A stretch of DNA of 64,000 bases from Candidatus Latescibacterota bacterium. Its GTDB lineage: Bacteria; Latescibacterota; UBA2968; UBA8231. The notes under the pieces were generated by a model, which worked only from the letters and a program-made list of their open reading frames with translations, did no database searches and was not told the origin of the DNA. Position numbers and translations under genes: made by a program. Shown here in pieces: positions 1 to 37,243 of the stretch (its first letter is position 1; each line of letters begins with the position of its first letter). Where the stretch lies: contig CBDCDC010000002.1 of NCBI GenBank assembly GCA_965215195.1, positions 4,032,001 through 4,096,000 on the forward strand, given 5' to 3'.

Positions 1-1
1 C

Positions 2-856
2 CATACCGTGGTTGAAGCAGAATGCCTGAGTGCGGTTGAGCGCGCTGAACGCGATAGAAAAGCGGCCGCCGATAGCCTCAAGGTGGCTAAAGCAAAAGCC
101 GACTCGGCAAGCAAAGCCGCAGAAAAGGCCAAGGCCAAAGAGAAGGTCGCTCGGCGGGCGGCAGAACGGGCGAAAGCGCGGGCCGATTCCGCAGAGAAAG
201 TGACCGCCGATAGCCTGAAGATGGCGAAAGCGCGGGCCGATTCCGCGAGTAAGGCGGCCAAAGCCAAAGCCGACAGCCTCAAAGCAGCAGAAGTGCAGGC
301 GCAAGCCAAAGCCGACAGCCTCAAAGCGGCCAAAGAAAAGGCCGCGCAGCGATTGCAGTGGGGCCTTGCTGCCGGGGCGGGACTGGTGCTGCTCGCCCTC
401 CTCGGTTGGTGGCTTTCTTCGCGGCGGAAAAAGGAGCAATTACAGAGCGCTGAGTCCCGAGTGAGTGAAGCCGAACAAACGGCTGAAGCCGCGCGCCAAG
501 CCGCGGCGAGCGCACCGCAGCCCGCGCCTTTCAGGTGTCTATTGGAAGGCCAAGATAGCACCGGCCGGCCATTCGCCTTGACCCTATCGGCCTTGGCCTT
601 GGGGGATCGAACCGGTGTGACGCTCGGCAGAAGCCCGGCCAACGCCGAATTTATCATTGACCACGAACAAGTCTCCCGCGAACACGTCCGGCTCGCGTGT
701 GCTGACGGCCAACTCTACGCAGAGGATTTGAATGCTCTGAATGGGACCAAGGTGAACGGCCGCCTGCTCAACCCCGGCGAACAGGTGCTGTTGCAAAACA
801 ATGATCGGCTTGAGATCGGGCCGGTCGCTTTTGCCGTGCGTTTGGTGCAGGAGTGA
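2..856 (+). CDS. Membrane-anchored FHA-domain protein, 5'-partial (probable paralog of the next protease-TM-FHA gene)
   Basis: Frame is open from the window start. Ala/Lys-rich KAKADS repeats, TM helix (WGLAAGAGLVLLALLGWWL), C-terminal FHA motifs GR..., VSREH, NALNGT. Confidence 0.85.
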   Translation, partial: HTVVEAECLSAVERAERDRKAAADSLKVAKAKADSASKAAEKAKAKEKVARRAAERAKARADSAEKVTADSLKMAKARADSASKAAKAKADSLKAAEVQAQAKADSLKAAKEKAAQRLQWGLAAGAGLVLLALLGWWLSSRRKKEQLQSAESRVSEAEQTAEAARQAAASAPQPAPFRCLLEGQDSTGRPFALTLSALALGDRTGVTLGRSPANAEFIIDHEQVSREHVRLACADGQLYAEDLNALNGTKVNGRLLNPGEQVLLQNNDRLEIGPVAFAVRLVQE

Positions 857-859
857 ACA

Positions 860-2188
860 TTGCACCGCTTCAGACGCTGGCATCGCGTCTTTTTTCTACT
901 CGCGCTTCTGCTGCCGGGCCGCGCCGTTGCCGCGCCAGACTTTGACGCGCTTGAGCGGAGCGTGGTACGCATTGTAACCCAGACCAGCCAAGGACCTAAT
1001 GCGGGCACTGGATTCGCCATAAACGACCAAGGCTATATTGCGACCAATGCCCACGTCATCGCCCACGCCCACTCGATCCAAGCCATCCCAACCAACTCCA
1101 ACGCGCTATACGAGGTGGAAGTAATCGCCACGTCCCCAGAATTCGACCTCGCAATCGCCCATATCCCCGACATAACCCTGCCTCCGATTGCGCTGTCGCT
1201 CGCACCGGCCACAAAAGGCCAGAAGGTATGGTCCATAGGCTATCCCGGTGGGGCTGACCGCAACAGACCGGCGCACGATCCGACCGTGCAAGACGGCGTC
1301 ATTGGGCGGATTTTTTCGGGCGCGTGGCACGCGCAAGAACTCAGGATTATTCAGCACAATGCGCCGACCAATCCGGGCAACAGCGGCGGCCCCTTACTAG
1401 ATGATTGTAGCCGGGCCGTCGGCGTCAATACGCAGGCGTCGCTCGTGGTCATTATCAGTCCATCGAGTGGGGTGACGCGGGTGCCCCATGCGGCGGGCAT
1501 TTACTGGTCTTCGCATATCGAGGAGTTGACAACTCTGTTGGACGACCACGGCATTGCTTTTCAATCAGAGAGCGACGATTGTGTAGCGGCTGGCGGCACG
1601 GGAGGTTCTGGCACGGCGGAAAAGGCGCAGCGCGAGGCGGAGAAGGCGCGGCGCGAGGCCGAACAAGCGCGGGTGCAAGCCGAAGAAGCGAGCGATCAAT
1701 TTTTCATCTACCTACTCTTGTTGGGCGGTGTGGCTTTGGTCGCCTTGGTCGTTGCCTTAAAGAAGCCGCGCCAGTTCGCCCAGCAGACCTTGGCGAAGCC
1801 GCGCCAACTCGTCCAACAGATAAGTCGGCGCGTAGGGGTAGGGGCCGTTGCCAAAGGCCCAAGGCACGGCATCGTGCTAGCTGGTTTTGACGGTCGCGGC
1901 CACCGCGTCTGCATTGAGTTGTCGCCGGCCCGATTTGCTGGTCAACGCTTGGGGCTTTCGCTCGGCCGGCATCCCGAGTTGGTCGATGAAGTCGTCGCCG
2001 ATGGAAACGTATCCCGCCGGCATCTGCGCATTGTCGCCCAAGGCAATCGATTGTATGTCGAAGATTTGAACTCCAGCAATGGGACGTTTTTGAACGAGCA
2101 ACGCCTGTCGCCCTTTAAGCCGGCGCGATTGGAATATGGTGCCAAAGTCGCGCTGGGCGATTTGGTGCTCATGGCCTCCAAACTTTAG
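860..2188 (+). CDS. Trypsin-like serine protease - TM - FHA domain protein
   Basis: Signal peptide; catalytic triad motifs TNAHV, DLA, GNSGGP; TM helix; FHA motifs GRH, VSRRH, NSSNGT. Confidence 0.9.
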   Translation: MHRFRRWHRVFFLLALLLPGRAVAAPDFDALERSVVRIVTQTSQGPNAGTGFAINDQGYIATNAHVIAHAHSIQAIPTNSNALYEVEVIATSPEFDLAIAHIPDITLPPIALSLAPATKGQKVWSIGYPGGADRNRPAHDPTVQDGVIGRIFSGAWHAQELRIIQHNAPTNPGNSGGPLLDDCSRAVGVNTQASLVVIISPSSGVTRVPHAAGIYWSSHIEELTTLLDDHGIAFQSESDDCVAAGGTGGSGTAEKAQREAEKARREAEQARVQAEEASDQFFIYLLLLGGVALVALVVALKKPRQFAQQTLAKPRQLVQQISRRVGVGAVAKGPRHGIVLAGFDGRGHRVCIELSPARFAGQRLGLSLGRHPELVDEVVADGNVSRRHLRIVAQGNRLYVEDLNSSNGTFLNEQRLSPFKPARLEYGAKVALGDLVLMASKL

Positions 2189-2200
2189 AAGGTATCGGGC

Positions 2201-3154
2201 ATGAAGAAACGCAGCCGCGAGCTCAACATCTTTAGTATGTCTGCGCTTGATCTGTTCGCATCGGCTCTCGGTGCTTTCATACTCATTACCATGGTGCTGC
2301 TGCCCTTTTTCCCGAATCTGAACTTGTCGGGACAGGAAAAGGCCGAGTTGGCGCAGGCGCAGGCCGAGTTGGCGAAGTCGAAGGCCGAGTTGGCGCAAGC
2401 GGAGGCCGAGTTGGAGCGAGAGAAAGCCAAGCTAAGACAGGAAAAAGCCAAACTAGAGCGGGCCAAGGCCAAAGTTCCGAAAACAGAAAATCCGCTTGCA
2501 AAACGAGTGGAGGCTTTGCAACAGGAGCTGAAGCAGGCAAAGGCCGAAGCGGCGAAAGCAAAAGGTCAGCTTGCAAAACGGGTGGAGGCTTTGCAACAGG
2601 AGATAGATGACACAACCGTTTTATTGGGCATTAAGACGAAGGCGAGAAAGTTCGCGTTCGTCATAGATATGTCGGGCAGTATTTATCAGCCTGGAAAGCA
2701 AGATTATCGCCAGTTCATATTATTGGCCATACAAGACATGCTTGCTGCTTTTAAGGCGGAAATAGAGGTCTGTCTCATTGGTTTTCAAGGCTCGAATCGG
2801 CTGCACTATTGGCCTCAAAATAGAGGGTACTTTCAAGTAAAAAGGAATACGCGAGATCGCGTCGTAGGACAGGTAAACGACTGGATGAGATTAGTGGATG
2901 GCGACACGCCCACACGCGCTGCGTTGCTGGCGGCGATTGCACTGCACCCCGAAGAAATCGTCCTGTTGAGCGATGGGGCCCCCTCTGAAGATTGGCGCAT
3001 GGTCGTGCAGGCTGTAACGGCTGAAAATAGGCGGAAAATACCCATACACGCCGTAGCCGTTGGCAATTACGTGACAGACCGGAAATTTATTGATTTTCTA
3101 GTGCAGCTAACCGAACAAAACAACGGCTATCTCATAGGTGCTAAGCCGGGTTGA
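2201..3154 (+). CDS. Single-TM (Asp-containing) coiled-coil vWA domain protein
   Basis: N-terminal SMSALDLFASALGAFILI helix; heptad repeats; MIDAS DMSGS, GDTP, LSDG. Confidence 0.85.
   Translation: MKKRSRELNIFSMSALDLFASALGAFILITMVLLPFFPNLNLSGQEKAELAQAQAELAKSKAELAQAEAELEREKAKLRQEKAKLERAKAKVPKTENPLAKRVEALQQELKQAKAEAAKAKGQLAKRVEALQQEIDDTTVLLGIKTKARKFAFVIDMSGSIYQPGKQDYRQFILLAIQDMLAAFKAEIEVCLIGFQGSNRLHYWPQNRGYFQVKRNTRDRVVGQVNDWMRLVDGDTPTRAALLAAIALHPEEIVLLSDGAPSEDWRMVVQAVTAENRRKIPIHAVAVGNYVTDRKFIDFLVQLTEQNNGYLIGAKPG
2339..2420 (+). repeat. ~4 x 21-bp coding tandem repeat (xAELAxx heptads)
   Basis: aggccgagttgg recurs every 21 bp. A second ~34-bp duplication (LAKRVEALQQE) lies at ~2494 and ~2569. 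Confidence 0.85.
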
Positions 3155-3155
3155 C

Positions 3156-3539
3156 ATGAACAAATCGAGGTTTTCAGTGTATCGAATTGGGCGCAGTCCC
3201 GGCGTAGATATTCAAATTGACGATGATTCGGTCTCTCGCGTCCACGCCGAGTTGATTGCGACGCCAAGCGGCTCGTACTACCTCACGGATTGCGCCAGCA
3301 GCGGGGGTACTTATGTTGCGCGAAATGGTGAGTGGAGACGCATCCGGCAAGAATTTATCAGCCCGACCGACGCGATTTTACTCGGGCATTATCAGACGAC
3401 CGCATCCGCACTCATCGCGCTGGCCGCGCAAGAGGAGCGCCATTTAGGAGGCGGCAAACCTACGCGGCAGGACAGCTTGCCCGTAGGTCCAGTGCGGCGC
3501 AACGTAGATACAGGTGAGATCATTAGCGAGGAGGATTGA
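3156..3539 (+). CDS. Stand-alone FHA domain protein
   Basis: IGRS, VSRVHA, SSGGT motifs; ATG at 3156 just after the upstream stop. Confidence 0.85.
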   Translation: MNKSRFSVYRIGRSPGVDIQIDDDSVSRVHAELIATPSGSYYLTDCASSGGTYVARNGEWRRIRQEFISPTDAILLGHYQTTASALIALAAQEERHLGGGKPTRQDSLPVGPVRRNVDTGEIISEED

Positions 3540-3540
3540 C

Positions 3541-4326
3541 ATGGCAAACGGGCAAGGGATAGAGCTGGAGCAACGTCTAAAAGCAAGCGTCATCAGCCTG
3601 TTAGGAGGCGTCATATCCATCGCGATTATGAGCCTTATTTTTGATCACCCCGATTCTGCGGTCGGTGCTTTTCTGTTGGATCGCCACACCGAGAATTTCC
3701 CGTATCCGTTTACAATCCAAAACGTCATGTGGCTGATGTTTTGGGTCGGCTGCGGTGAACTCTGGGTGCGGTTTAACCAAGCCCAGCTCGAAATGGAGCA
3801 GGTGGCGAAACGCTATCTGCCGGAAGACGATGAAGTTATGTTGCGGGCGCGGGATTTGGGTTCTTTTTATCAAAAGGTGCGGCCCATGGCCGAGGAGCGC
3901 CCCTTCTATTTACAGCGTCTGATCATGCGCTGTATTCTACAGTTTCAGGGGAGCCACTCCGTCAATCAAGCCAACTCGCTATTGAATTCATCCCTCGAAT
4001 TATTCCAGCACGAGCTCGAACTCAAATACGCGATGTTGCGCTATCTCGTGTGGCTGATCCCAACGCTGGGTTTTATTGGCACGGTGGTGGGTATTGCGTT
4101 TGCGTTGGATTATGCCGCCAACATTGAAGATCCACAGGACCCGACCTTGCTGGCGGAAATCACCGGTCGGCTGGGCGTCGCGTTTTACACGACTTTGCTG
4201 GCGTTGGTCCAGTCGGCCCTGCTGGTGTTTGCGCTGCACATTGCACAAAGCCGCGAAGAGATGGCCTTGAACCAATCCGGCCAGTACTGTTTGGACAACT
4301 TAATCAACCGGCTTTATGAGAAGTAA
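3541..4326 (+). CDS. MotA/TolQ/ExbB proton channel family protein
   Basis: Four hydrophobic segments; IPTLGFIGTVVGI and LGVAFYTTLLAL motifs. Confidence 0.85.
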   Translation: MANGQGIELEQRLKASVISLLGGVISIAIMSLIFDHPDSAVGAFLLDRHTENFPYPFTIQNVMWLMFWVGCGELWVRFNQAQLEMEQVAKRYLPEDDEVMLRARDLGSFYQKVRPMAEERPFYLQRLIMRCILQFQGSHSVNQANSLLNSSLELFQHELELKYAMLRYLVWLIPTLGFIGTVVGIAFALDYAANIEDPQDPTLLAEITGRLGVAFYTTLLALVQSALLVFALHIAQSREEMALNQSGQYCLDNLINRLYEK

Positions 4327-4379
4327 GTTGCAGGTGTGACGCCTGCGCGGCCGGAACAACCTAAAGATAGGAGGGCACC

Positions 4380-5021
4380 ATGCCTGTTTATCGCGGACCC
4401 GATGGCAAAGTCATTGAAGAGAAGACCGATAAGCGGAGCGAGGATACCAAACCACCGGGCGTGGCCAACAGGCCGTTGCCGCCGGCACCACAGGACGGCG
4501 AGCAACCCGCCGGTGGTGGGCGTTTAGAGGCACCCACCCAGCGAATGGGCGAAAGTGTCGGCGAGGAGGAGCGGACGCGCTTGGTGGGTGGGTGGCCGCG
4601 GCAAGAAGACAAGGAACGCCGGCAAGAGCGTACCGCAGAGGACCGCGGCATGGACGATCCGGTTGTGGGGTGGTTGGTGGTTGTGGAGGGGCCGGGAAAG
4701 GGGCGGGCCGTGCAATTGGGTTATGGTTCCAATTCGCTTGGACGCGGGGCAACCAACCGCGTCAAACTCGATTTCGGCGACGATCAGATTTCGCGCAATG
4801 GTCATGCGGTTGTCACGTATGATCCGCGGTCGCGGGGCCGAAAGTTTTACGTACAGCACGGCGGCGGCACCAACCTGACGTATCTCGGAGATCAGCCCGT
4901 GCTCGCGCCGGCTGAGTTGCCGGCCCTGAGTCACATCTGTATCGGCCATACGGTTCTCCGGTTCGTGCCCCTGTGCGGTGCTGAGTTTGAATGGCAGGAT
5001 ACAGAAGCAAGCGAGGCGTGA
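4380..5021 (+). CDS. FHA domain protein with disordered N-terminus
   Basis: PVVGWLVVVEGPGKG...LGRG...ISRNGHA...NLTY; RBS ggagg. Confidence 0.85.
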   Translation: MPVYRGPDGKVIEEKTDKRSEDTKPPGVANRPLPPAPQDGEQPAGGGRLEAPTQRMGESVGEEERTRLVGGWPRQEDKERRQERTAEDRGMDDPVVGWLVVVEGPGKGRAVQLGYGSNSLGRGATNRVKLDFGDDQISRNGHAVVTYDPRSRGRKFYVQHGGGTNLTYLGDQPVLAPAELPALSHICIGHTVLRFVPLCGAEFEWQDTEASEA

Positions 5022-6130
5022 TGAACGAATTAGACGGGTGCTTTGCCGCGCGGCAAATTCCCGGCCAACGGGAGTATCAAGAGGATGATTACGGCCTGCT
5101 CGATGGGCGCGACCTCGGCATAGATGGTAGCGAGCACACCATGTTGTTGGTCGCCGATGGCATGGGCGGCCACGTGGGCGGCGCGACGGCTAGTGGCCTG
5201 TTGAGCAAGACCGTTGTCGAGGCGTATCCGCAGGCGTCTGGCCCCATCGTCGATCGGCTGCGGGAGTGTCTCGAAGCGGCCAATGAAGCCATCGCCGCTG
5301 CCATTGCCGAAAATCCCGCACTCGCCAGCATGGGTTCGACCTTGGTTGCGGCGGTTGTTTCGAGCGAAGGGCTGAACTGGATCAGCGTGGGCGACTCGCC
5401 ATTGTGGTTGTTCCGCGAGGGTCAATTGGAGCGGTTGAATGCCGACCACTCGATGGCACCAGTTCTGGCGGATCTGGTGGCCACCGGGCGCATGACCGCA
5501 GAGGAAGCGGCTCAGGATCCAAGTCGGCATTCGCTGCGCTCGGCGGTCATGGGCGATGCCATCCATCTGATTGACGTGTCGTCGCAGCCGGTTGCTGTGC
5601 AGAAGGGCGACCGGGTACTCTTGGCGAGCGATGGTTTGATGACCCTCAGCGATCAAGCGATCGCAGCTATCCTCAAAGAAACGCAAGACGCGCCCTTGGA
5701 GGATAGCGCGGCGGCCCTTATCCAAGCCGTAGAAGCGGCCGAACATCCTCATCAGGACAATACGACCGTTTTGTTGTACGCGCCGGCTGCGGCTGCTCTT
5801 GGCGGGGGGGAAGCTGTTCAGGGTAAGCCGCGATTAAAACGAAAACCTTGGGGCAGACTGTTGGGAATGTTGCTATGCGTTGCTGTCTTATGGGGGGTGC
5901 TTTATTGGCTTAGGCAGGGTGAAGATGTGGCTGTTGAGATGACGCCGGCAACTGTTGAGACGCCAGCGACAACGGATGTTGAACCCATTGAAGGCTCTGA
6001 TGTTCAAGTGCCAATGGCATCCGACGCCGAAGAGGGCGTACCGGCCTCTCAGGAGAAGGCGACAGGGGACAGCGCCCGTGCGGGGGTAGGCAACGAGCCG
6101 CAAGAAGAGCGTGTGGGCGGTGAGCGGTGA
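5021..6130 (+). CDS. PP2C-family Ser/Thr protein phosphatase with C-terminal TM
   Basis: R.YQED, VADGMGGH, VGDS, ASDGL, DNTT motifs; TGATG overlap with the upstream gene. Confidence 0.92.
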   Translation: MNELDGCFAARQIPGQREYQEDDYGLLDGRDLGIDGSEHTMLLVADGMGGHVGGATASGLLSKTVVEAYPQASGPIVDRLRECLEAANEAIAAAIAENPALASMGSTLVAAVVSSEGLNWISVGDSPLWLFREGQLERLNADHSMAPVLADLVATGRMTAEEAAQDPSRHSLRSAVMGDAIHLIDVSSQPVAVQKGDRVLLASDGLMTLSDQAIAAILKETQDAPLEDSAAALIQAVEAAEHPHQDNTTVLLYAPAAAALGGGEAVQGKPRLKRKPWGRLLGMLLCVAVLWGVLYWLRQGEDVAVEMTPATVETPATTDVEPIEGSDVQVPMASDAEEGVPASQEKATGDSARAGVGNEPQEERVGGER

Positions 6131-6262
6131 GCGGTGAGCGTGGATGCAGACACAGATACGGCCCTGAGAGCGTCTGCCTTAGAGTAAAGAGGCGTAAGTG
6201 GGGAACAACATTGCTTGGGAGGGAGAATTTCCCAAGGCCATACTAAACACAGGAGGAGAGGA

Positions 6263-6760
6263 ATGAATTTCTCATATAAGCGGCTTGCCGTAGCCTTGAG
6301 CGTGGTTGTTGCGGTCTTGGTTGGAGGCAAAATGTATGTTGATCATGTTGATCATGTCGAACAGGTGGCGTTGGAGAAGGAGGTACAGGTATTTGCTGCA
6401 AAGGTGGGGCGTTCGCCACGTCCGGATGGGGTGATCACTAGCACTAGGAGATCTCGCATCGAAGAAGCACAGGTGTCCGACCTGCATGTAGCAGCGCACC
6501 TGAACCTACCCGTGCTGACTATGTCCCTAATCAAGGGGGGGGCGGATGTCCATGCCAGAATCAGGCGGTCGGTGGATAACTTTGAAAGAGGGATGACGCC
6601 GCTGCACGCGGCGGTTCGAGAGGATGCTTCTGAGGTAGCGGCGGTGTTGCTTGAGCACGGGGCCGATGTCAACGCCAAAGACAGCTATGGCCATACGCCG
6701 CTACGCTATGCGAGTGTGAGCGTAGCCAAGGTTTTGCGTCGTTACGGTGGCCGAAGGTGA
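6263..6760 (+). CDS. Membrane-anchored ankyrin-repeat protein
   Basis: N-terminal hydrophobic helix; GMTPLHAA, LLEHGADVNAKD, GHTPL; RBS aggagg. Confidence 0.85.
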   Translation: MNFSYKRLAVALSVVVAVLVGGKMYVDHVDHVEQVALEKEVQVFAAKVGRSPRPDGVITSTRRSRIEEAQVSDLHVAAHLNLPVLTMSLIKGGADVHARIRRSVDNFERGMTPLHAAVREDASEVAAVLLEHGADVNAKDSYGHTPLRYASVSVAKVLRRYGGRR

Positions 6761-6793
6761 AATAAGCTGATTTTTGCAACAATTGGAGACGCT

Positions 6794-8455
6794 ATGAGCG
6801 AAGAGCAACAACCTCTCAACGCCTTGCCCCAAGGCCATCGGCTGCAAGAATACGAACTGGTGCGCGTGTTGGGCTTTGGCGGCTTTGGCATGACGTATCT
6901 GGGCTTTGACCACCACTTGGACAAAGCCGTCGCGATCAAGGAATACCTGCCATCGGACATTGCCACCCGCACGGCCGACCACAGCGTCGCCCCGCAAACC
7001 AGCGGCTTTGGCGGCGATTTCGAGTGGGGCTTGGAGCGGTTCTTGGACGAAGCGCGCACGTTGGCGCGATTTGACCATCTCCACATCGTTAAAGTCTATC
7101 GTTTCTTTGAAGCGCACGGTACGGCCTATATCGTGATGGAGTATGTCGAAGGGGAGACCTTGTCGGCGTATCTTGAGCGCAAAGGGACGCTGAGCGAAGC
7201 CGAACTCAAAGCGCTTCTATATCCGCTTCTGGACGGTTTGGAGGTGGTGCATAAAGCGGACTTTTTGCATCGGGACATCAAGCCGGGCAACATCGTCCTT
7301 CGAGACGCAGACCATTCGCCGGTGTTGCTGGACTTTGGGGCGGCGCGTCAGGCGATCGGGGCGAAGAGCCGCTCGGTTACGTCTATCGTGACACCGGGGT
7401 ATGCGCCGATTGAGCAGTATTCGAGTCGGGGGCATCAGGGAGCGTGGACGGACCTTTATGCGTTGGGGGGCGTGTGCTATCGGGCGTTGACTGGGGACGT
7501 ACCGGACGATGCGATGGATCGGGTGCGAAATGATCCGTTGGTTCCGGTGGCAAAGCGGTGTGCGGATCGGGCGAGTGGTGCATTTTTGTCAGCGATTGAT
7601 GCGGCATTGGCAGTGGATGAGGGGGATCGTCCGCAGAGTATTGGGGCTTGGCGGGCGGCGATGGAGGCGGATGCGGTCTCGCAGGACGAGCGGCACCCTT
7701 CGTTGGTAAAGCGGTATGCGGTTCGGGTAAGCCAAACGTTTCTTTCGGTGATTGATAAGACATTGACGCAAGGAAGGCAGGGCGCGAGCAGCGAGACCGC
7801 TGATGCGCCGCTAACTACTCAGTCAGCAGCCAAAGTTAAAGAGGCGAAGCGTTTGAACGGGTGGTTTAAGCTCCACTATATTTGCCTTGCTGCCATCATA
7901 CCGGTATTGACGGCACTATTTGTTGGCATTGCGGTGGTATTAGTCTCTTCAGAAGGCGAGCGTGTCCGCAAAGACCTGAGCCGTTTTTTAGAGTCGCAGA
8001 CGCTAGAGCCATATCTGAGTAGCGTATTCGGACTATTTAGCATCATAGTCGCGATTGTTGCGGCCGTATTCGGGTTGATTGCTTTTGTATCCGGGTTGCG
8101 TATCCTACATAAATTGTGGTCCCTCATCTCCGCTCACAAAGCAAAGACGACACCAAGCGAAGCCGTTGGATTTTTCTTTATACCGCTGTTCGGTTTCTAC
8201 TGGAACTTTATTGCAATTTACGGTCTCGCCAAAGCCCTCAATAGCGAAATCGGTCGAAAATCAGTCAGTGAGGCGGCCAGTTTTATCTATTGTTGCTCAT
8301 TTTTGCTTGGCCCTCTATGGGTGATAATGGGATGGCGAGAGGATCAGATTTGGATGCTCCTTATTGGATATATTGTTATGGTTGTGCTCTGGTTCGTCAT
8401 TCTGAGGCAAATGCAGAACGCTGGTATGTTCATTTTGCAATCGGATAAGGTGTAG
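6794..8455 (+). CDS. Hanks-type Ser/Thr kinase with C-terminal multi-TM (DUF4328-like) domain
   Basis: GFGGFG, VAIKE, HRDIKPGN, DFG, YAPIEQ, DLYALG; five hydrophobic helices including FFIPLFGFYW. Confidence 0.92.
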   Translation: MSEEQQPLNALPQGHRLQEYELVRVLGFGGFGMTYLGFDHHLDKAVAIKEYLPSDIATRTADHSVAPQTSGFGGDFEWGLERFLDEARTLARFDHLHIVKVYRFFEAHGTAYIVMEYVEGETLSAYLERKGTLSEAELKALLYPLLDGLEVVHKADFLHRDIKPGNIVLRDADHSPVLLDFGAARQAIGAKSRSVTSIVTPGYAPIEQYSSRGHQGAWTDLYALGGVCYRALTGDVPDDAMDRVRNDPLVPVAKRCADRASGAFLSAIDAALAVDEGDRPQSIGAWRAAMEADAVSQDERHPSLVKRYAVRVSQTFLSVIDKTLTQGRQGASSETADAPLTTQSAAKVKEAKRLNGWFKLHYICLAAIIPVLTALFVGIAVVLVSSEGERVRKDLSRFLESQTLEPYLSSVFGLFSIIVAIVAAVFGLIAFVSGLRILHKLWSLISAHKAKTTPSEAVGFFFIPLFGFYWNFIAIYGLAKALNSEIGRKSVSEAASFIYCCSFLLGPLWVIMGWREDQIWMLLIGYIVMVVLWFVILRQMQNAGMFILQSDKV

Positions 8456-8503
8456 TTACTAACTTTCTCGTTTTTTCTCTTTTTTTATAAGGAGCAATGA
8501 GCT

Positions 8504-9334
8504 ATGAAGTCTTTTGCTGTATGTCTGCTGGGGTTGGTCTCAGTGGGATATGTGCTGGCGACGTATCTGCTGGCGGTGAGTTGCGGCGTGGGGGGTTCGT
8601 CGCAGACCTTTGAGCTTCCGGGGGGTTCGTCGATGGATTTTGTGTGGATTGCGCCGGGGACGTTTATAATGGGTTCGCCGCCTTCGGAGTCGGGTCGTAA
8701 TGATGATGAAGGGCCGATTCATGAGGTGGAGATTAGTAAGGGGTTTTATTTAGGGAAGTATGAGGTTACTCAGGGTCAGTGGAATGCGGTGATGGGGGCG
8801 CGGCCGTGGTCTGGCAAGGACGATGTTCAGTCGAATCCATCTCATCCGGCGGTGTATATTTCTTGGCGCGATGTGCAGGCTTTCATAGAGGAGTTGAATT
8901 TTGCGGCGGGTGAGGTAGTGTATCGTTTGCCGAGTGAGGCGGAGTGGGAGTATGCGTGTCGAGCGGGGAGTACGACTCGTTGGTCGTTTGGGGATGAAGA
9001 GAGGCAACTGACGGATTATGCGTGGTATGATGCTAATGCTTGGGATGTGGGTGAGAAGTATGCTCATGCGGTAGGGCTGAAGCGTCCCAACCCTTGGGGT
9101 TTGTATGATATGCATGGGAATGTTTGGGAGTGGGTGCAGGATTGGTATGACTCGGATTATTATAATAGCTCACCTCGGGTTGACCCCCCGGGGCCTACAT
9201 CCGGCTCTAATCGCGTCGGCCGGGGCGGCGCCTTCAGCAATCTCGCCCAGTACGTGCGGTCGGCGGGTCGCGTCAACGACTCGCCCGACGGCCGCTACTT
9301 CGACGTTGGCGTGCGCCTTTTAAGGATTCGTTAA
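8504..9334 (+). CDS. FGE-sulfatase (SUMF1/C-lectin fold) lipoprotein; putative DGR target
   Basis: GTFIMGS, EVTQGQW, RLPSEAEWEYACRAG, GLYDMHGNVWEW, RV.RGG...RSA.R...G.RL; possible lipobox LAVSC. Confidence 0.9.
   Translation: MKSFAVCLLGLVSVGYVLATYLLAVSCGVGGSSQTFELPGGSSMDFVWIAPGTFIMGSPPSESGRNDDEGPIHEVEISKGFYLGKYEVTQGQWNAVMGARPWSGKDDVQSNPSHPAVYISWRDVQAFIEELNFAAGEVVYRLPSEAEWEYACRAGSTTRWSFGDEERQLTDYAWYDANAWDVGEKYAHAVGLKRPNPWGLYDMHGNVWEWVQDWYDSDYYNSSPRVDPPGPTSGSNRVGRGGAFSNLAQYVRSAGRVNDSPDGRYFDVGVRLLRIR
9200..9334 (+). other. Putative DGR variable region (VR) and IMH
   Basis: C-terminal CLec segment. 26 of 40 codons at 9200-9319 end in C and none in A; the variable slots are all NNY codons. No TR found in the window. 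Confidence 0.7.
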
Positions 9335-9401
9335 CCCTTTAGCTCTTTTACCCTTTTACCCTTGGTGGGGTGTCAAGGGGTGTGGGGTGTCTTTTGGGGG
9401 A

Positions 9402-9466
9402 GCCTTTTAGGAGCCACCCCGATAAAGGGGCGTGCGGAGCCGCCCTTCGGGTGGCTCCTAAAAGGC
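9402..9466. repeat. Perfect 18-bp inverted repeat (hairpin/cruciform)
   Basis: gccttttaggagccaccc (9402-9419) pairs with gggtggctcctaaaaggc (9449-9466). Confidence 0.9.
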
Positions 9467-9497
9467 GAGGGGGAGGGGGCGTTTTTTTTCTGGTATG

Positions 9498-9519
9498 TCC
9501 GGCCTGCGTGCAGGCCGGA
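9498..9519. repeat. Perfect 10-bp-stem GC hairpin
   Basis: tccggcctgc-gt-gcaggccgga. Confidence 0.9.
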
Positions 9520-9564
9520 GCGAAATTTTTCAAATTCATTATTATGTTTACTTAGGAGGCCCTA

Positions 9565-9740
9565 TTGCTCCGCATTTTCACCCTCAAGTTCCAAAGCCCC
9601 CTAGGGGCCTTTGACGACGCCGAACTCCAAGCGTTCATCAAAGACAAAGAGGTGTTGTCCATTCGCGATCACTTCTTCACCAAGGACGAGATGCCCTATC
9701 TGGTGGTGCTGGTGACTTATCAACTCGCCGGCCCCCGATT
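9565..9740 (+). pseudogene. N-terminal fragment of an HRDC-domain DGR accessory-like protein
   Basis: RBS aggagg; LRIFTLKF...FDDAELQAFIKDKEVLSIRDHFF...PYLVVLVTY resembles (from recall) the N-terminus of DGR-linked HRDC proteins. The ORF then runs into unrelated AT-rich DNA. Confidence 0.55.
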
Positions 9741-9802
9741 CGCTTGGCGTTGCGGTTCAGGGCGGAGCTTTGATATTACGACTGTACGTAAAGAAAGCAG
9801 TA

Positions 9803-10231
9803 TTAATCCTTATCTTTCCACTCCACTTTCACTATCCACTCGCCATAATCATTTTGATAAAGTCTAGCTTTACCAACTTTATCAAACTCCTCTCCATCAA
9901 ATGCTAGACGCGCTAGAAATCGAGACGAAAAAGCGCGTTCTGGGTCTAAGTAGAAGCTTCCGCGAACCCGGACTTGTACTGGCCAATATTTTCTTTCTTC
10001 ATTGTAAGAACCCCATTTCTCTATGCTTACTTCTTCCATATCCCACCGTAGGAGGTCAGGATCTTTATCAAGTAGCCTACTATGACCAGAAGTGAATCCA
10101 TTTTTTTCTATCGCCGCTTTTACCAGAACCTTTATTTCTGACTCACTCGGCTTTGGGGCGAAACATCCAACCAACAACGTTGGCGATATAAAGGCCAATA
10201 GTAAAACAGGAAATTGAACAAGTGATTTCAT
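9803..10231 (-). CDS. Hypothetical lipoprotein
   Basis: RBS ggagg before ATG 10231; lipobox LVGC; AT-rich. Confidence 0.7.
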   Translation of the reverse strand: MKSLVQFPVLLLAFISPTLLVGCFAPKPSESEIKVLVKAAIEKNGFTSGHSRLLDKDPDLLRWDMEEVSIEKWGSYNEERKYWPVQVRVRGSFYLDPERAFSSRFLARLAFDGEEFDKVGKARLYQNDYGEWIVKVEWKDKD

Positions 10232-10374: not shown

Positions 10375-10736
10375 TTAAGGAGATTTCCGAGAAGCTGCGA
10401 AGGCACTGAACGAGGAAATCTTCAGTGCCCTAGACGCCCTACGTAGCGCCCTAGTCTGGTCGGCCGCCTCGGTTTGAGATAGTCGCCTTCCCAAGGTGTT
10501 CGCGGCCACCGTCGCGGGTACCCGGCCCGTCAGTGCGGTAAAGGTGCCGATTTGGCTGCCAATAATCCAGCGCGTCAAGACGTTCATACGTTCATTGAGC
10601 GCGTCTAGTCGGCGGTTTATCTCGGCGTTGTTCTGCTGCATTTCTTGGCGCAAGGCGGCGTTATCCTCGATGCAGTTTAATCGCTTGGATAACTCCATTT
10701 GCACGGGATCGAGCTTGACTTCGGGGGCTACTGCAA
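10375..10736 (-). pseudogene. Degenerate copy of the adjacent coiled-coil/TM protein
   Basis: Compared with the 11055 gene: TTG CAG TAG nonsense, a 1-bp deletion in the C run, and a scrambled 3' end. Confidence 0.6.
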
Positions 10737-10779
10737 GGTCAGTCTCTCCTTGGGGTGATGCCCGGCCAAGGCGCGAGGG

Positions 10780-11055
10780 TTAGGTCAATTTGAGGGCGGC
10801 GAACAAGAGACCCGTCAGGGCAATTTGGGTGCCAATGACCCAATAGATGCGTCCATTGAGCGCATCTAGTCGGCGGTGTACCTCGGCGATGTCTTGCCGC
10901 ATGTCCTGCCGCAAGGCGGCGTTGTCCTGCCGCAAGGCGGCTATGTCCTCGCGTTGGTGTGTCTCGATGCGGTCGAGGCGTCGCTCAATGCTGTCTAATC
11001 GCTTGGACAACTCCACTTGCACGGGATCGGGTGTGACTTCGGGGGGCTGCTGCAT
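10780..11055 (-). CDS. Small coiled-coil protein with C-terminal TM (DUF1640/XhlA-like)
   Basis: ALRQD heptad repeats; C-terminal IYWVIGTQIALTGLLFAAL; RBS aggag. Confidence 0.75.
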   Translation of the reverse strand: MQQPPEVTPDPVQVELSKRLDSIERRLDRIETHQREDIAALRQDNAALRQDMRQDIAEVHRRLDALNGRIYWVIGTQIALTGLLFAALKLT

Positions 11056-16625: not shown

Positions 16626-18308
16626 TCACTGTTCCTCTTGTACCAAGGTTTTCAGGTTCTCTTCGTGGATCTTGACTTGGGGCTCGTATTGGTGCCGCAG
16701 CTCGCTCACGAACCGGAAGAAGGCCGCATCGCGCTTCCGGCGCAGGACCATGGCCCGGGCTCGGGTCGCGACCTCGGCGAAGGGCTGGGGGCCGGCTCCG
16801 AAGGTTGATTCGACGACCCTGAACACGGAATAGTAGCGGTCTTCTGACGCCGCACCACCGGGGGGCACCTCCACTTCGATGGGACCCAGCAGGTCGCCCG
16901 GCCCGGCTTCCCCGGCGGCTTCAAACAGGGCCTCGTGCGCTTCTCTCTGATACCAATGGAGGTGGAATCGCCCGCTGTCTGGTATGGCCACGCGCCGCAG
17001 GGTATGCTGCTGGGCGAGGACCCGCAGGTTTTCACCGCGCTCAATCCGGTGCCGGAGCGCGACCGCTTCTTCGCGTGTCGCGAGCAAAATTTCGTCCAGC
17101 GTCAGGGCCTCTTGGGGGACGAAACTCTGCGGATTTTGGGCATAGAAGCGCCGCGCCTCGTCCTCGTCCACCTGCACCTCGCCCGTCACCTGCTTCCTGA
17201 TGACCGCCAGCAGGCGTTCCTGCTCTCTGGCTTGACGCCAAGCGACCATCTCCCGCTCGCGGTCGATTCCGGCATTGCGAGCGGCCTGCACAGCCAGCGC
17301 ACGGGGGACTAGGACGGACTCGGCAAACCAGCGTACCTGCTCTCGCACCTCGCCCGAGAACTCCCGGTAGTTCTCCCGGGCCGAGTCCACGAACTCTCCC
17401 ACCGTAATAGTGCCGCCATCGAATTCGTAGAGCACCTTGGTGCGCTCCGCCGCGGAAAACGCGCGTCCCTCGCTCTCCAGACGCACGGCGAGAAACTCGA
17501 TAGCGTCTTCTCGGGGACGCACGTCCAGAGCATCCCGCAGTTGCCGGCCGAGCTCCATGGATCGAAGGCCGGCCTTTTTCCGGTGGAGCTCGGTCACCAC
17601 TATACTCCGCACCCGTTCGAGTGAAACAGGTGCCTCGTCCATGACTTGGAACACGCCGTAGGTGCCGCCCGGCAGGGGTATGGGTTCGGAGATCTGACCC
17701 TTCGCGAGCGGAAAGACCTTTTCCTGCATGACGGGCAGGGGCATCTGGTCCTTGGTGGCGTACCCCATGAATCGGCCCCCCTGCTCGGCCGTCGCACGGT
17801 GGGTCGAGTGCTGCCGCGCCAACTCCCCGAAGTCGCTGCCGCCCTGCAACAGGCGCACGATCTCCTCGGCTTCCTCCTTGCTCTCGACCTCGATCTTGCC
17901 CCCCATGACCGCGCGATTCCGTCCAGTCTTCAGGTAGTGGTCGTGGATTTCCCGCTCTTCGAGCGCGATCTTCGCGTCCACTTCCCGGGCGAAGAATTCG
18001 TTCACCAGCCGCTCGGTCCATTCGCGCTCCAGCTTGCGGCGCATGTCGCGGTCGCGGTCCCAACCCCGCACTGCCGCTTCCCGAATGAGGATCTCCTTGT
18101 CGATTAGAGCCTGCAGATGCTGCCGTCGCCCTTCGATGCCCGCCTCCTTGGCCCTCAGGCTTTCGCCTAGGCGCTCCTCAAAGCGGCGTAGCTGGGCGGC
18201 GTGAATGCGGGTGTCTCCCACCTCGGCCAGCACCGGGCCATGCGCGTCTTCCCCGCAGCCCGCTAGGACGATGCCCAGAGCCAAGGCCAGTGGTGCTGCC
18301 TTTATCAT
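16626..18308 (-). CDS. Parvulin-type peptidyl-prolyl isomerase lipoprotein (two PpiC domains)
   Basis: Lipobox LAGC; F.ELARQHS....A..GG and GQISEPI motifs, repeated degenerately. Confidence 0.8.
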   Translation of the reverse strand: MIKAAPLALALGIVLAGCGEDAHGPVLAEVGDTRIHAAQLRRFEERLGESLRAKEAGIEGRRQHLQALIDKEILIREAAVRGWDRDRDMRRKLEREWTERLVNEFFAREVDAKIALEEREIHDHYLKTGRNRAVMGGKIEVESKEEAEEIVRLLQGGSDFGELARQHSTHRATAEQGGRFMGYATKDQMPLPVMQEKVFPLAKGQISEPIPLPGGTYGVFQVMDEAPVSLERVRSIVVTELHRKKAGLRSMELGRQLRDALDVRPREDAIEFLAVRLESEGRAFSAAERTKVLYEFDGGTITVGEFVDSARENYREFSGEVREQVRWFAESVLVPRALAVQAARNAGIDREREMVAWRQAREQERLLAVIRKQVTGEVQVDEDEARRFYAQNPQSFVPQEALTLDEILLATREEAVALRHRIERGENLRVLAQQHTLRRVAIPDSGRFHLHWYQREAHEALFEAAGEAGPGDLLGPIEVEVPPGGAASEDRYYSVFRVVESTFGAGPQPFAEVATRARAMVLRRKRDAAFFRFVSELRHQYEPQVKIHEENLKTLVQEEQ

Positions 18309-23979: not shown

Positions 23980-24016
23980 GGAGAGGCCCTCTCTCGGTGA
24001 AATCGCCAAACCAGTT

Positions 24017-35491: not shown

Positions 35492-37243
35492 TCATGGCTT
35501 CTTAGGGGCCGGGCCCACCTTGCCCTCGACCAGCGCGACGAACCGATCGGGTCTCAGACCCGCTAGGTGCTCAACCGCGCCGCTGGGCCAGCGGATCCGC
35601 ACCGAGTCGACCTGCGTCCGGGCCCCCAGCCCGAAGCTCACCCGCATGTCTCGCTGCGACAGATAGCTGAAGCTGCCCCGGACCTCCTGCACTTGGTAGA
35701 GGTCGCCCGCCCACACCTCAATCCGTGCCCCGATGCCGTCCCGGTTACTCGGTCCGCCCCGGGTGGAGAGGGTGAGCCAGTGGCGCGAATTCCCTCCCTC
35801 GTTCCTCAGCAGGGCGGGCGACTGCTCGCTGTTGGTGACCACGATGTCCGCGTCGCCGTCGTTATCGTAATCGCCCACCGCGCAGCCGCGGCTGACCCGC
35901 GCCCGCGTTAGGGCCACCCCCGCTTGGGAAGAGATGTCCCGGAACCGGTACTGGCCGCGGACATCGGGTCCTTGGTTCTGCAGCAGCAGGTTCGGCTGGG
36001 CGTAGCTACTCGACTCGTGGAACGCTGAGGTATTGTCGAGCACGTGGCCATTGGCCACGAATAGGTCTTGGTCTCCGTCGTTGTCGTAGTCGATGAAGCC
36101 GATGCCGAACGAAAGGTAGGGCAGGCTGACCAGACCGATACCTGCGGGGTACGAGGCGTGCGGAAAAAACCCGGTGCCCCGGTTCTGGTACAGGCTAATA
36201 GGCTCGTTCTCAAAATTAGTGACCGCTAAGTCCATGTCGCCATCGTTGTCGTAGTCGGCCGCATCAACCCCCATGCCCGCCTCCTGTTGGCCGTCTTGGC
36301 CGTAGGCCACGCCGGCCAGCCCGCCGAGCTCGGTGAAGCGCCCGTCGCCCTCGTTGTGGTAGAGGAAGTTGGGCACGGCGTCATTGGCCACATAGAGGTC
36401 CATGTCGCCGTCGTTGTCGTAGTCGGTGGCCACCACGCCCAGCCCCCGTCCGGCCGCGGCTGAGGTGTCCACCAGCCCGGCCAGCCGATTCACGGCGCGA
36501 AAACGCCCGTCGCCCTCGTTGCGAAATAGGTGGTCCTCGGCACCGGCGAAGTTCCGCGGATGGGGGTACGCCTCGATGCCTTCTGCGGGGGCGCGCTGAG
36601 GCGTGGCTAGGTAGGCTTCCAGATCTTTCTCGGCGTAGGATAGATCGTAGTGGACGTAGTTGGCCACGTACAGGTCGAGGTCTCCGTCGTTGTCGTAGTC
36701 GGTGAAGGTGCTGCCCATGCTCCAGATGGTGTCTCCCACCGCGGCTTGGTCCGTGACATCGCGGTATCGCCCATCGCCCTCGTTGCGGTACATGACGTTG
36801 GCGCCGTAGTTGGTCAGGTATAGGTCCGCGTCGCCGTCGTTGTCATAGTCGGCAAACGCGCATCCCATGCCATAGCCCGGGTCGTCCACCCCAGCGTCCC
36901 GCGCCACCTCCACAAAGCGGCCGCCCTCGTTGCGAAACAGCGCATTGACTGGATCCGGCGAGCCTGTGTAGCCTCGGAATGCAGCGCCGTTGACGAAGTA
37001 TAGGTCTAGGTCTTGGTCGCCGTCGAAGTCGATGAAACCAACCCCGGAGCCCATGGTCTCGGGGAAGTACCGCCGACCGCTCGCCCCGGTGACGTGCTGG
37101 AATTTGACCCCGACCTGCTCGGCCACATCGACGTACTCTATCGCGGGAAGAGGAGCGGGTTGAGCGGTCCAGCCAGCGGGCGGCCCCAGACATAGCGCGG
37201 CCACTATCCCCGCGTCGCTCAGGGCAGCGAGTGGTCGGCGCAC
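35492..37243 (-). CDS. CRTAC1-family protein (FG-GAP/VCBS repeats plus ASPIC/UnbV)
   Basis: Multiple DYDNDGD.DL repeats; SNRDGIGARI, FGLG, IRWPSG. Confidence 0.9.
   Translation of the reverse strand: MRRPLAALSDAGIVAALCLGPPAGWTAQPAPLPAIEYVDVAEQVGVKFQHVTGASGRRYFPETMGSGVGFIDFDGDQDLDLYFVNGAAFRGYTGSPDPVNALFRNEGGRFVEVARDAGVDDPGYGMGCAFADYDNDGDADLYLTNYGANVMYRNEGDGRYRDVTDQAAVGDTIWSMGSTFTDYDNDGDLDLYVANYVHYDLSYAEKDLEAYLATPQRAPAEGIEAYPHPRNFAGAEDHLFRNEGDGRFRAVNRLAGLVDTSAAAGRGLGVVATDYDNDGDMDLYVANDAVPNFLYHNEGDGRFTELGGLAGVAYGQDGQQEAGMGVDAADYDNDGDMDLAVTNFENEPISLYQNRGTGFFPHASYPAGIGLVSLPYLSFGIGFIDYDNDGDQDLFVANGHVLDNTSAFHESSSYAQPNLLLQNQGPDVRGQYRFRDISSQAGVALTRARVSRGCAVGDYDNDGDADIVVTNSEQSPALLRNEGGNSRHWLTLSTRGGPSNRDGIGARIEVWAGDLYQVQEVRGSFSYLSQRDMRVSFGLGARTQVDSVRIRWPSGAVEHLAGLRPDRFVALVEGKVGPAPKKP

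Follow-up and report, generated by a model that had tools for sequence, protein, structure and literature searches.

A three-copy gene cluster with a putative ExbB-type motor pair, FHA proteins, proteases and Ser/Thr kinases, and a lectin-fold gene with a predicted retroelement-type variable region, in a Candidatus Latescibacterota genome

We analysed a window of 64,000 nucleotides from a Candidatus Latescibacterota bacterium (G000:C2:4032001-4096000, where G000 is the analysed genome, with two contigs and a completeness of 95.2%). Ten same-strand genes, g1 to g10, lie at positions 2-9334 of this window. Their locus belongs to an accessory cluster type that occurs in many phyla and that this genome carries in three paralogous versions. 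The genes encode a MotA/ExbB-family channel protein (g5), a vWA protein with a transmembrane (TM) helix (g3), four FHA proteins (g1, g2, g4 and g6), a PP2C phosphatase (g7), an ankyrin protein (g8), a Hanks-type kinase (g9) and an FGE-sulfatase/C-type-lectin-fold protein (g10). All ten were supported as real genes by the listing of open reading frames (ORFs) and by Pfam, with domain matches exceeding the curated cut-offs in each, and every gene and domain named in a preliminary description of the locus was recovered. The last 33 codons of g10 are, judging from their mutation pattern, a variable region written by a diversity-generating retroelement (DGR). We propose, with confidence evenly divided for and against, that receptor kinases would act through the docking of FHA domains to control a motor and proteases, that PP2C would reset the state, and that g10 would assist g9. 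This proposal builds on what was observed, namely the domains and their topology, the conservation of catalytic and binding residues, gene linkage that recurs across phyla, a patchy distribution and the mutation signature; from these we infer the physical interactions, the direction of the signal and the biological role.

Copies, linkage and distribution of the cluster

Exactly three clusters were found in the genome, at C2:1.02 Mb, at C2:2.89 Mb and in the window, with approximately 88% nucleotide identity over g1-g7, and three MotA-like copies per genome was the maximum seen. Pfam identified nine Pkinase genes in this genome, seven of which lie inside the three clusters or within 12 kb of them. 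Among the 30 other genomes of the genus, 16 carry the MotA-like gene; at phylum level it was detected in 35 of 168, and five single-contig congeners were without it. Given this patchy presence, the cluster is therefore accessory and not housekeeping. In three congeners, the matched stretch of the MotA-like gene carries one in-frame TAA (G022:C1:1131732-1132526, G002:C1:2084769-2085563 and G013:C109:571-1365). The closest DNA matches of the analysed genome came from sponge metagenomes.

Linkage was surveyed in 34 loci found with g5 (set 1) and in the best 80 of 477 related stretches of g5 type in the genome contigs collection, found with an alignment of distant homologues (set 2). The census used home-made hidden Markov models on stop-to-stop ORFs, many loci were cut by contig ends, and the counts are approximate. 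Near the MotA-like gene, FHA genes were present in 32/34 set 1 and 32/80 set 2 loci, PP2C genes in 27/34 and 24/80, kinase genes in 31/34 and 24/80, and fused trypsin-FHA genes in 28/34 and 15/80. FHA, PP2C and kinase genes occurred together in 27 of the 34 and in 19 of the 80 loci, and the motor pair stood without phospho genes in 2 and 48 loci, respectively. The 19 set 2 loci with all three gene types include Acidobacteriota, Acidimicrobiia, Gamma- and Betaproteobacteria, Desulfobacterota-type metagenome-assembled genomes (MAGs), Bdellovibrionales and Balneolales. Furthermore, a Pfam check of 89 proteins revealed a recurrent order across phyla, namely FHA, MotA-like, helix protein, FHA, PP2C, trypsin-TM-FHA, PP2C and kinase; in many loci of the phospho class, the gene immediately upstream of the MotA-like one encodes an FHA protein, and the order g4-g5 itself recurs across phyla. 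Because the core is present three times in this genome and FHA, PP2C and kinase genes recur in related loci, the gene arrangement is not due to chance.

The proposed motor pair, phospho layer and receptor kinases

The preliminary description took the MotA-family protein as a free-standing ion motor. Our results suggest instead that g5 pairs with the vWA protein g3, which is the source of an ExbD-like helix. The g5 protein matches Pfam MotA_ExbB (PF01618) at 40.5 bits against a cut-off of 22.9, and its PT.GFIGT and F..T motifs, located in TM helices, are invariant among 27 homologues. At its N-terminus, g3 (…ELNIFSMSALDLFASALGAFILI…) is similar to the trans-pore helix of ExbD/TolR, aspartate (Asp17) included, and in Chelatococcus and a Thiosymbion MAG the same motif stands at the head of genes 3' of MotA-like genes. 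With Pfam, g3 gave no match to an ExbD or MotB model at E <= 0.01, and no separate ExbD or MotB domain was found among the ten genes. In 31/34 set 1 and 72/80 set 2 loci, a helix protein was encoded no more than 9 kb from the MotA-like gene and on its strand, and the column of Asp17 held Asp in 72 of 104 such ORFs and Ala in the other 32. The genes g3 and g5 are separated by 360 nt, with g4 alone between them, and in 24 of 34 related loci a single gene joins the helix to the vWA domain.

The structural model of g3 comprises helices at residues 14-36 (of low confidence as a monomer), 38-91 and 99-137, followed by an alpha/beta fold at 139-317, for which Foldseek returned the VWA domains of ITIH1 and CLCA1 as best matches. 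The metal-ion-dependent adhesion site (MIDAS) of the vWA domain is complete, with D156, S158, S160, T238 and D258 invariant among 18 sequences, and the length of the coiled coil varies. ExbD, TolR and MotB helices sit inside the channel ring. By likeness to these proteins, the ExbB/TolQ-like g5 would most likely form a channel ring and the Asp-bearing N-terminal helix of g3 would most likely sit within it, so that proton flow might turn or pull the periplasmic coiled coil of g3 and its MIDAS-bearing vWA head. Such 5:2 motors, made of tolQ-like genes paired with vWA proteins that bear a trans-pore helix, are a prediction already published in section 8 of PMC12204202 (Mol Biol Evol 2025). A complex prediction for g5 with g4 (alignments A3 and A2) scored 0.00 with controls not run and is informative in neither direction.

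Among 27 homologues of the g4-type FHA protein, the phosphothreonine-binding residues G18, R19, S33, R34 and H36 (G-R...S-R-x-H) were invariant. The kinase g9 carries the motifs VAIK, HRD and DFG, and the phosphatase g7 carries DGMGGH and a Stp1/IreP-like match of 138.5 bits that is under the cut-off of that model; g6 likewise has an NCBIfam FhaB/FipA-like match under its cut-off. The preliminary description had reported two membrane-anchored FHA proteins, which stands, and an exported trypsin domain on one of them only, which does not: g1 also matches Trypsin_2. Both membrane-anchored FHA proteins bear an exported trypsin domain, because the N-terminus of g1, which lies off the window, is Trypsin_2. 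The two differ at the catalytic triad, with His-Asp-Ser kept in g2-type proteins (37 ORFs) and a degenerate His-Asn-Phe at the same columns of g1-type proteins (27 ORFs). The two trypsin proteins thus appear to be a conserved live/dead pair in which g1 is predicted to be catalytically dead; in six related loci, the dead form occurs alone.

Hydropathy placed TM segments in g1, g2, g3, g5 (three), g7, g8 and g9 (five) and at the N-terminus of g10. This topology fits the earlier idea of a trans-envelope circuit, with the kinase, PP2C and FHA parts in the cytoplasm and the protease, vWA and FGE parts in the periplasm. In such a circuit, membrane Hanks kinases would phosphorylate threonines on cluster proteins, and the marks would be read by four FHA domains, those of the soluble adaptors g4 and g6 and those in the cytoplasmic tails of g1 and g2. 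Docking of the FHA domains would assemble, position or gate the motor and the proteases, and the membrane PP2C g7 would reset the state.

The flanks of the core in related genomes are occupied by changing kinase arrays, in which the first ~300 residues are 70-89% identical to g9 and the C-terminal parts and neighbours differ. Ankyrin genes stand beside the core in 24 of 34 related loci and FGE domains in 8 of 34, there always as a kinase-FGE fusion, with the FGE copies 35-39% identical to g10. In set 2, with its 80 loci from other phyla, six loci contain kinase-FGE fusions inside the cluster, and such fusions were also seen in the clusters of Lamprocystis, Thiohalocapsa, Pseudohongiella and other Gammaproteobacteria. 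In the analysed genome itself, a fused kinase-ankyrin gene is present at paralogous cluster 1, and two genes, f1 (C2:2887392…) and f2 (L003:9380-11551), each encode a kinase, one TM segment, a tandem-repeat coiled coil and an FGE domain, an architecture by which we class them as putative receptor kinases. By eye, the TM region of g8 looks like that of f1 and f2. The FGE gene, regarded at the outset as a member of the locus, turned out in this neighbourhood survey to be a variable accessory. Taken together, these arrangements suggest that the kinases would be a variable input layer, with a conserved kinase domain and outer parts that vary (FGE on a coiled-coil stalk, ankyrin or polytopic).

The adjacent genes g9 and g10 resemble the kinase-FGE design divided over two genes. 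The N-terminus of g10 is a hydrophobic segment ending in LLAVSC, and the protein is possibly a lipoprotein. By analogy, g10 would most likely be a detached outer partner of g9 and act as TagR does with PpkA. As presented in PMC13713981, TagR carries an FGE-sulfatase domain and has been modelled as binding the periplasmic domain of PpkA, and PppA and Fha1 complete the pathway.

Several observations weigh against the proposed circuit. The functional links among the cluster proteins are drawn from gene adjacency. The motor can exist without phospho regulation, as it does in the set 2 loci that lack phospho genes nearby, and the Ala in the Asp column, seen mostly in the kinase-less class, indicates that proton conduction may differ among relatives. 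The tie of g10 to the motor machine may be loose, given the low count of FGE partners and no close g10 orthologue seen beside a core; two congeners (G021 and G009) have FGE genes with variable regions and are without the motor gene. In addition, at least five genes of the analysed genome share the variable-region module of g10; among them are otherwise unrelated proteins that it terminates, namely PD40/dockerin surface proteins and a dynamin-ankyrin-FGE gene.

Comparison with known systems and competing readings

Three components of the locus are known already: the motor-vWA pair as a published prediction, DGR-marked lectin-fold kinases (PMC10907252, PMC7159879; see also PMC7517822), and a phosphorylation domain set like that of T6SS (type VI secretion system). 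In the tolQ-like/vWA pairs described in PMC12204202, as here, a TolQ/ExbB-like gene lies tight beside the gene of a TM-tethered vWA protein without tolR or exbD, with a proton-binding Asp on the helix and a conserved Thr in the channel TM helices. That account places the vWA genes in Proteobacteria and Verrucomicrobia, mostly as heterologous pairs, whereas here, in Latescibacterota-type genomes, each of the three clusters has one helix-vWA gene, whose coiled coil is long. Kinase, phosphatase and trypsin are absent from the main text of PMC12204202, and the FHA/PP2C/kinase/protease layer is undescribed there.

The regulatory genes resemble the TagQRST/PpkA/PppA/Fha1 pathway of the P. aeruginosa H1-T6SS (PMC13713981), which in the account given there also combines a Hanks kinase in the membrane with a PP2C, an FHA reader and an FGE-sulfatase protein that acts on the kinase from the periplasmic side. 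In our locus, it is the motor helix protein, rather than the kinase, that bears the vWA domain, the FHA proteins number four, of which two are tethered to proteases, and the proposed output is a proton motor instead of a secretion sheath. The periplasmic domain of PpkA is a vWA domain. The preliminary description allowed that the genes might be the edge of a T6SS or Ter cluster on the left. The 20 kb left flank encodes polyphosphate kinase, a dehydrogenase, two ankyrin genes, a kinase-FGE fusion and AAA_21, TM2, DUF805 and bPH genes; no T6SS gene and no Ter gene lies in this flank, and a genome-wide search for TssC and Hcp (PF05943, PF05638) gave no match, so that the locus is not such an edge. 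The TerY-P triad consists of a soluble TerY-type vWA protein, a PP2C and a kinase, often beside ter genes; a vWA protein, a PP2C and a kinase are present here, but the vWA protein is inserted in the membrane behind an ExbD-like helix. The vWA-MoxR ternary system, which PMC7159879 presents as a MoxR AAA+ ATPase, a vWA protein and VMAP, has no counterpart in the ten genes, among which no AAA/MoxR domain was detected. A full-text literature search found no published description of the whole combination of ExbB/ExbD-like motor, four FHA proteins, PP2C, live/dead proteases and receptor kinases. The new findings are that the cluster exists in three copies per genome, that the kinase repertoire is concentrated there and that a DGR-type variable region occurs in a genome without its writer.

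In our view, the cluster would most likely serve to monitor the envelope, or ligands that are foreign or come from a host. A fuller version of the circuit, which we put forward only tentatively, is that of an immune or recognition organ built on receptor kinases. Kinase ectodomains, either diversified by a retroelement (FGE/lectin) or taken over from eukaryote-like repeats (ankyrin), would signal through the four FHA proteins and PP2C to a rotary motor with a vWA adhesin arm and to the live/dead proteases. If true, recognition of ligands at the surface would be turned into proton-powered mechanical work and proteolytic work in the periplasm, which would be a new class of output for 5:2 motors and for bacterial Ser/Thr signalling.

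A rather doubtful alternative is anti-phage or anti-invader defence of the abortive-infection type. Diversified lectin-fold sensors would detect an invader, and the kinase signal would then set loose the protease and the proton channel, which would harm the envelope of the cell itself or collapse its membrane potential. The patchy, multi-copy distribution is as in defence genes, and ParE/antitoxin, FRG and PIN genes are inserted in the motor-kinase clusters of relatives (L076:3889-4421, L076:6540-7595 and L084:3449-3898). DGR-marked lectin-fold sensors with trypsin effectors have been proposed as conflict systems in PMC7159879 and PMC10907252. As characterised in these sources, they share with our locus a C-terminal FGE/CLec domain, variation at codon positions 1 and 2, kinase fusions, trypsin-like proteases and vWA proteins nearby, and remote targets without a local reverse transcriptase. 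They differ in their MoxR, STAND NTPase or EAD adaptor partners, none of which occurs here, where the partners are FHA, PP2C and the ExbB/ExbD-like motor; in the main text of PMC10907252, FHA, PP2C and MotA never occur. PADLOC gave a weak ZorA2 match (E 1.4e-5) and a weak ZorB1 match for g3 (E 2.5e-4), with no other Zor model detected. Like ZorA/ZorB of Zorya, the pair is a MotA/ExbB-family channel with a single-TM Asp partner outside flagella, Tol and Ton; unlike in Zorya, there is no ZorC- or ZorD-type gene and no long ZorA tail, and regulation is by kinase, phosphatase and FHA proteins. The B subunit of Zorya ends in a peptidoglycan-binding domain, where g3 has vWA. Against defence, the other PADLOC matches were generic (kinase, protease, coiled coil), Pfam found no nuclease, TIR, pore-former or NTPase switch in the locus, and the left-flank neighbours are housekeeping or small membrane proteins, except the AAA_21 gene approximately 6 kb upstream.

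A machine for envelope maintenance or surface motility, of the Tol-Pal or Agl-Glt kind, seems unlikely to us; phosphorylation would then only tune its assembly, and the FGE and ankyrin kinases would be neighbours with other jobs, such as symbiont-host interaction. Motors of the ExbB/TolQ type usually drive envelope processes, and the 48 loci with a motor pair that lacks phospho genes fit this explanation, as do the idea of vWA as a force transducer put forward in PMC12204202 and the FHA proteins that accompany the Agl-Glt motor, for which NCBIfam GltG-like FHA matches were seen here under the cut-off. However, the cluster is missing from 14 of the 30 congeners (including the five with single contigs), so it is not essential. 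A single housekeeping machine is also at odds with the presence of three diverged copies that have separate sets of kinases, and chance neighbourhood hardly explains why seven of the nine kinase genes gather at the clusters.

The variable tail of g10

The preliminary description had called the tail of g10 DGR-like, and we found a true mutation signature of the DGR type by three comparisons. First, against the closest paralogue, f1, the last 52 codons showed 14 non-synonymous and no synonymous differences (9, 11 and 0 at codon positions 1, 2 and 3), and the rest of the gene showed 68 non-synonymous and 28 synonymous differences (48, 52 and 68). Second, in a codon table of 11 usable genes from six genomes, scaffold codons were nucleotide-identical and variable codons were NNC or NNT; a twelfth row (L126) is mis-framed, yet counted in the printed totals. 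Third, the 11 variable regions were compared with the template of G132, which belongs to another genus of the same family and is not the cognate template of g10. There were 194 mismatches at the 25 A sites of the template (0.71 per site per region) and 105 at the 81 other sites (0.12), with g10 itself showing 16 mismatches at template A and 8 elsewhere. In addition, third-position base use shifts at approximately position 9170, with C in 12 of 222 body codons vs 28 of 54 tail codons.

The search for the retroelement gave results that count against such an origin. Within the window, no direct repeat of the g10 tail was found. A search of the whole assembly with blastn and nhmmer found no template repeat; its matches were paralogous variable regions and FGE genes without adenine bias. 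Avd (PF05635) had no match in the genome, and no DGR-type reverse transcriptase was found in it, the two RVT_1 genes both lying far from the window; the sole match of the G132 DGR enzyme was a group-II-like gene at 30% identity. The G132-type enzyme was present in only one of 76 family genomes and in none of the 30 congeners. Furthermore, in public contigs (four runs, at most three samples, one study that may itself be the source), which are blind to minor variants, the exact variable-region sequence of g10 recurred unchanged, together with a copy at 20 differences that is f1. These data leave the hypervariable receptor of the preliminary description standing as the history of the gene and not as a present activity.

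Elsewhere, templates do occur. The cassette of G132, with the g10-type scaffold, is intact, and two others were found in a congener, G021, and at locus L186 (Table 1). The half-template of G021 is cut off by an unrelated ATPase-like gene, and the neighbouring reverse transcriptase had no Rfam ribozyme match. The flanking ORFs of L186 were judged to be of FGE type from their C-terminal sequence, without a Pfam check. From these remnants, L186 appears to be a decaying DGR cassette, and that of G021 appears to have decayed too. The scaffold pattern had no match in viral contigs, nor had a 21-mer of the template; in the genome contigs collection the scaffold pattern matched 11 loci, none a template, and the Planctomycetes and Kuenenia matches share one block only.

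We regard it as highly improbable that the tail arose without a retroelement, through gene conversion among paralogues and diversifying selection on ligand-contact residues. The lack of template, Avd and DGR-type reverse transcriptase in this genome, the lack of such an enzyme in the 30 congeners, and a homogenised tract that g10 and f1 share beyond the coding region, as conversion would give, are in its favour; yet selection leaves the C or T at the third position of saturated codons unexplained, as it does the focus of mismatches on template adenines, and an intact cassette with the same scaffold exists in G132, with decayed cassettes in G021 and L186. Under the retroelement origin that we prefer, the writing element would either have been lost, leaving a frozen repertoire, or reside on an unassembled mobile element.

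Several candidates for the missing parts were rejected. The reverse transcriptase of L006, the group-II-like one of the two RVT_1 genes, was ruled out as a DGR enzyme by its maturase and HNH domains; Rfam gave no group II ribozyme match. Group-II-like enzymes of this type (L164:1501-3183 and L165; genomes G000 and G041; no DV/DVI match) are followed by a gene that is Cas02710/CARF-like by eye, and the two may form a defence-type pair. The L007 reverse transcriptase (L007:550-2256, minus strand, 568 aa) has RVT_1 as its sole Pfam match, a Toprim-like C-terminus by eye and no template nearby; by eye it is of retron or defence type, and it is unrelated to FGE tails. The sequences at C2:2911771 and C2:1272781 are not adenine-rich and are tails of other FGE-type sequences. 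The latter (G000:C2:1272781-1272916) is an orphan of the last ~45 codons and 3' flank of a second FGE-tail family (cognate C2:1260416-1261495), without an FGE body upstream. In the dynamin-GTPase-ankyrin-FGE gene at L176:690-4540, the FGE domain is truncated and a variable-region tail follows approximately 900 nt on as a separate ORF, so the gene appears to be disrupted.

Downstream of g10, the inverted repeat at 9402-9466 folds at -36.8 kcal/mol (z -4.5, with 0 of 200 shuffles as good), and, together with its T-run, this hairpin may just as well be a terminator. A promoter and terminator scan of 8300-10000 gave no call under the rules of the scan. The ORF at 9565-9867 (g11, 100 aa), 3' of the hairpin, was rejected as a member of the system, since it matched no family and recurred neither elsewhere in the genome nor in related loci.

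Table 1. Features of the g1-g10 locus and DGR-type cassettes in related genomes. Positions are in the window unless a locus is named; TM segments are from hydropathy and bit scores from Pfam.
Feature	Position	Strand	Length	Description
g1	1..856	+	521 aa	Begins 709 nt to the left of the window, at L003:19291; signal/TM, periplasmic trypsin-like domain, Ala/Lys-rich coiled coil, TM, cytoplasmic FHA; Trypsin_2 at L003:19291-19998, FHA in 2-856; TM 17-35 and 355-377
g2	860..2188	+	442 aa	Signal/TM, periplasmic trypsin-like protease (Trypsin_2, 95.5 bits), coiled coil, TM (277-303), cytoplasmic FHA (59.7 bits)
g3	2201..3154	+	317 aa	Short basic N-terminus, ExbD/TolR-like trans-pore helix (TM), periplasmic coiled coil, vWA outside (VWA_3/VWA)
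g4	3138..3539	+	133 aa	Small soluble FHA protein (55.2 bits); overlaps the start of g5
g5	3514..4326	+	270 aa	MotA/ExbB/TolQ-family channel subunit, three TM
g6	4380..5021	+	213 aa	Soluble FHA protein (28.2 bits); N-terminal half disordered, charged
g7	4991..6130	+	379 aa	PP2C (PP2C_2, 43.5 bits), C-terminal TM anchor (286-308)
g8	6215..6760	+	181 aa	TM-anchored ankyrin protein (Ank, 50.8 bits; TM 19-43)
g9	6794..8455	+	553 aa	Hanks-type Ser/Thr kinase (Pkinase, 128.5 bits), five C-terminal TM
g10	8504..9334	+	276 aa	Exported FGE-sulfatase/C-type-lectin-fold protein (FGE-sulfatase, 174.3 bits)
Predicted DGR-type variable region in g10	9209..9307	+		NNC/NNT codons among nucleotide-invariant scaffold codons
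Conserved flank, IMH-like	9308..9390	+		Common to variable-region paralogues (alignments of five paralogues and of relatives); extends ~55 nt beyond the stop codon
Long inverted repeat	9402..9466	+		Stem of ~16-18 bp; T8 run at 9483-9490
G132 cassette (same family)				Intact; 303-aa reverse transcriptase (RVT_1), template, FGE target with g10-type scaffold
G021 half-template (congener)	L162:9636-9700	-		Adenine-rich; 28 nt after the stop of a group-II-like reverse transcriptase (L162:9713-11371)
L186 template	L186, ~2001	-		Full, adenine-rich; beside a 28-residue DGR reverse transcriptase remnant, two FGE-type ORFs flanking

Other repeats were observed further into the window, all on the minus strand. 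Two adjacent paralogous coiled-coil ORFs of 109 and 91 aa lie at 10375-11055 (repeats D10/D12, 84-87% identical), one with a weak XhlA-like match. Tandem paralogous ORFs of 1076 and 939 aa at 18305-24009 contain blocks of 70-76% identity approximately 2.8 kb apart (D4, D6, D9 and D14), and a 583-aa ORF at 35492-37243 contains six copies of a degenerate ~60-nt repeat (families D1-D3).

If the proposed circuit is true, motors of the ExbB/TolQ type would reach beyond Ton, Tol, flagella, gliding and Zorya, with a new control by kinase, phosphatase and FHA proteins and a coupling to proteases, and many orphan bacterial Hanks kinases would gain a defined target. Lectin-fold sensors that were probably written by a DGR would be linked to a kinase pathway without an NTPase switch, and variable regions could persist as frozen repertoires once the retroelement is lost. 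The proposal is testable, as related clusters occur in cultivable carriers: the bare motor pair in Chelatococcus and Xanthobacter, and kinase-FGE versions in Lamprocystis and Thiohalocapsa.

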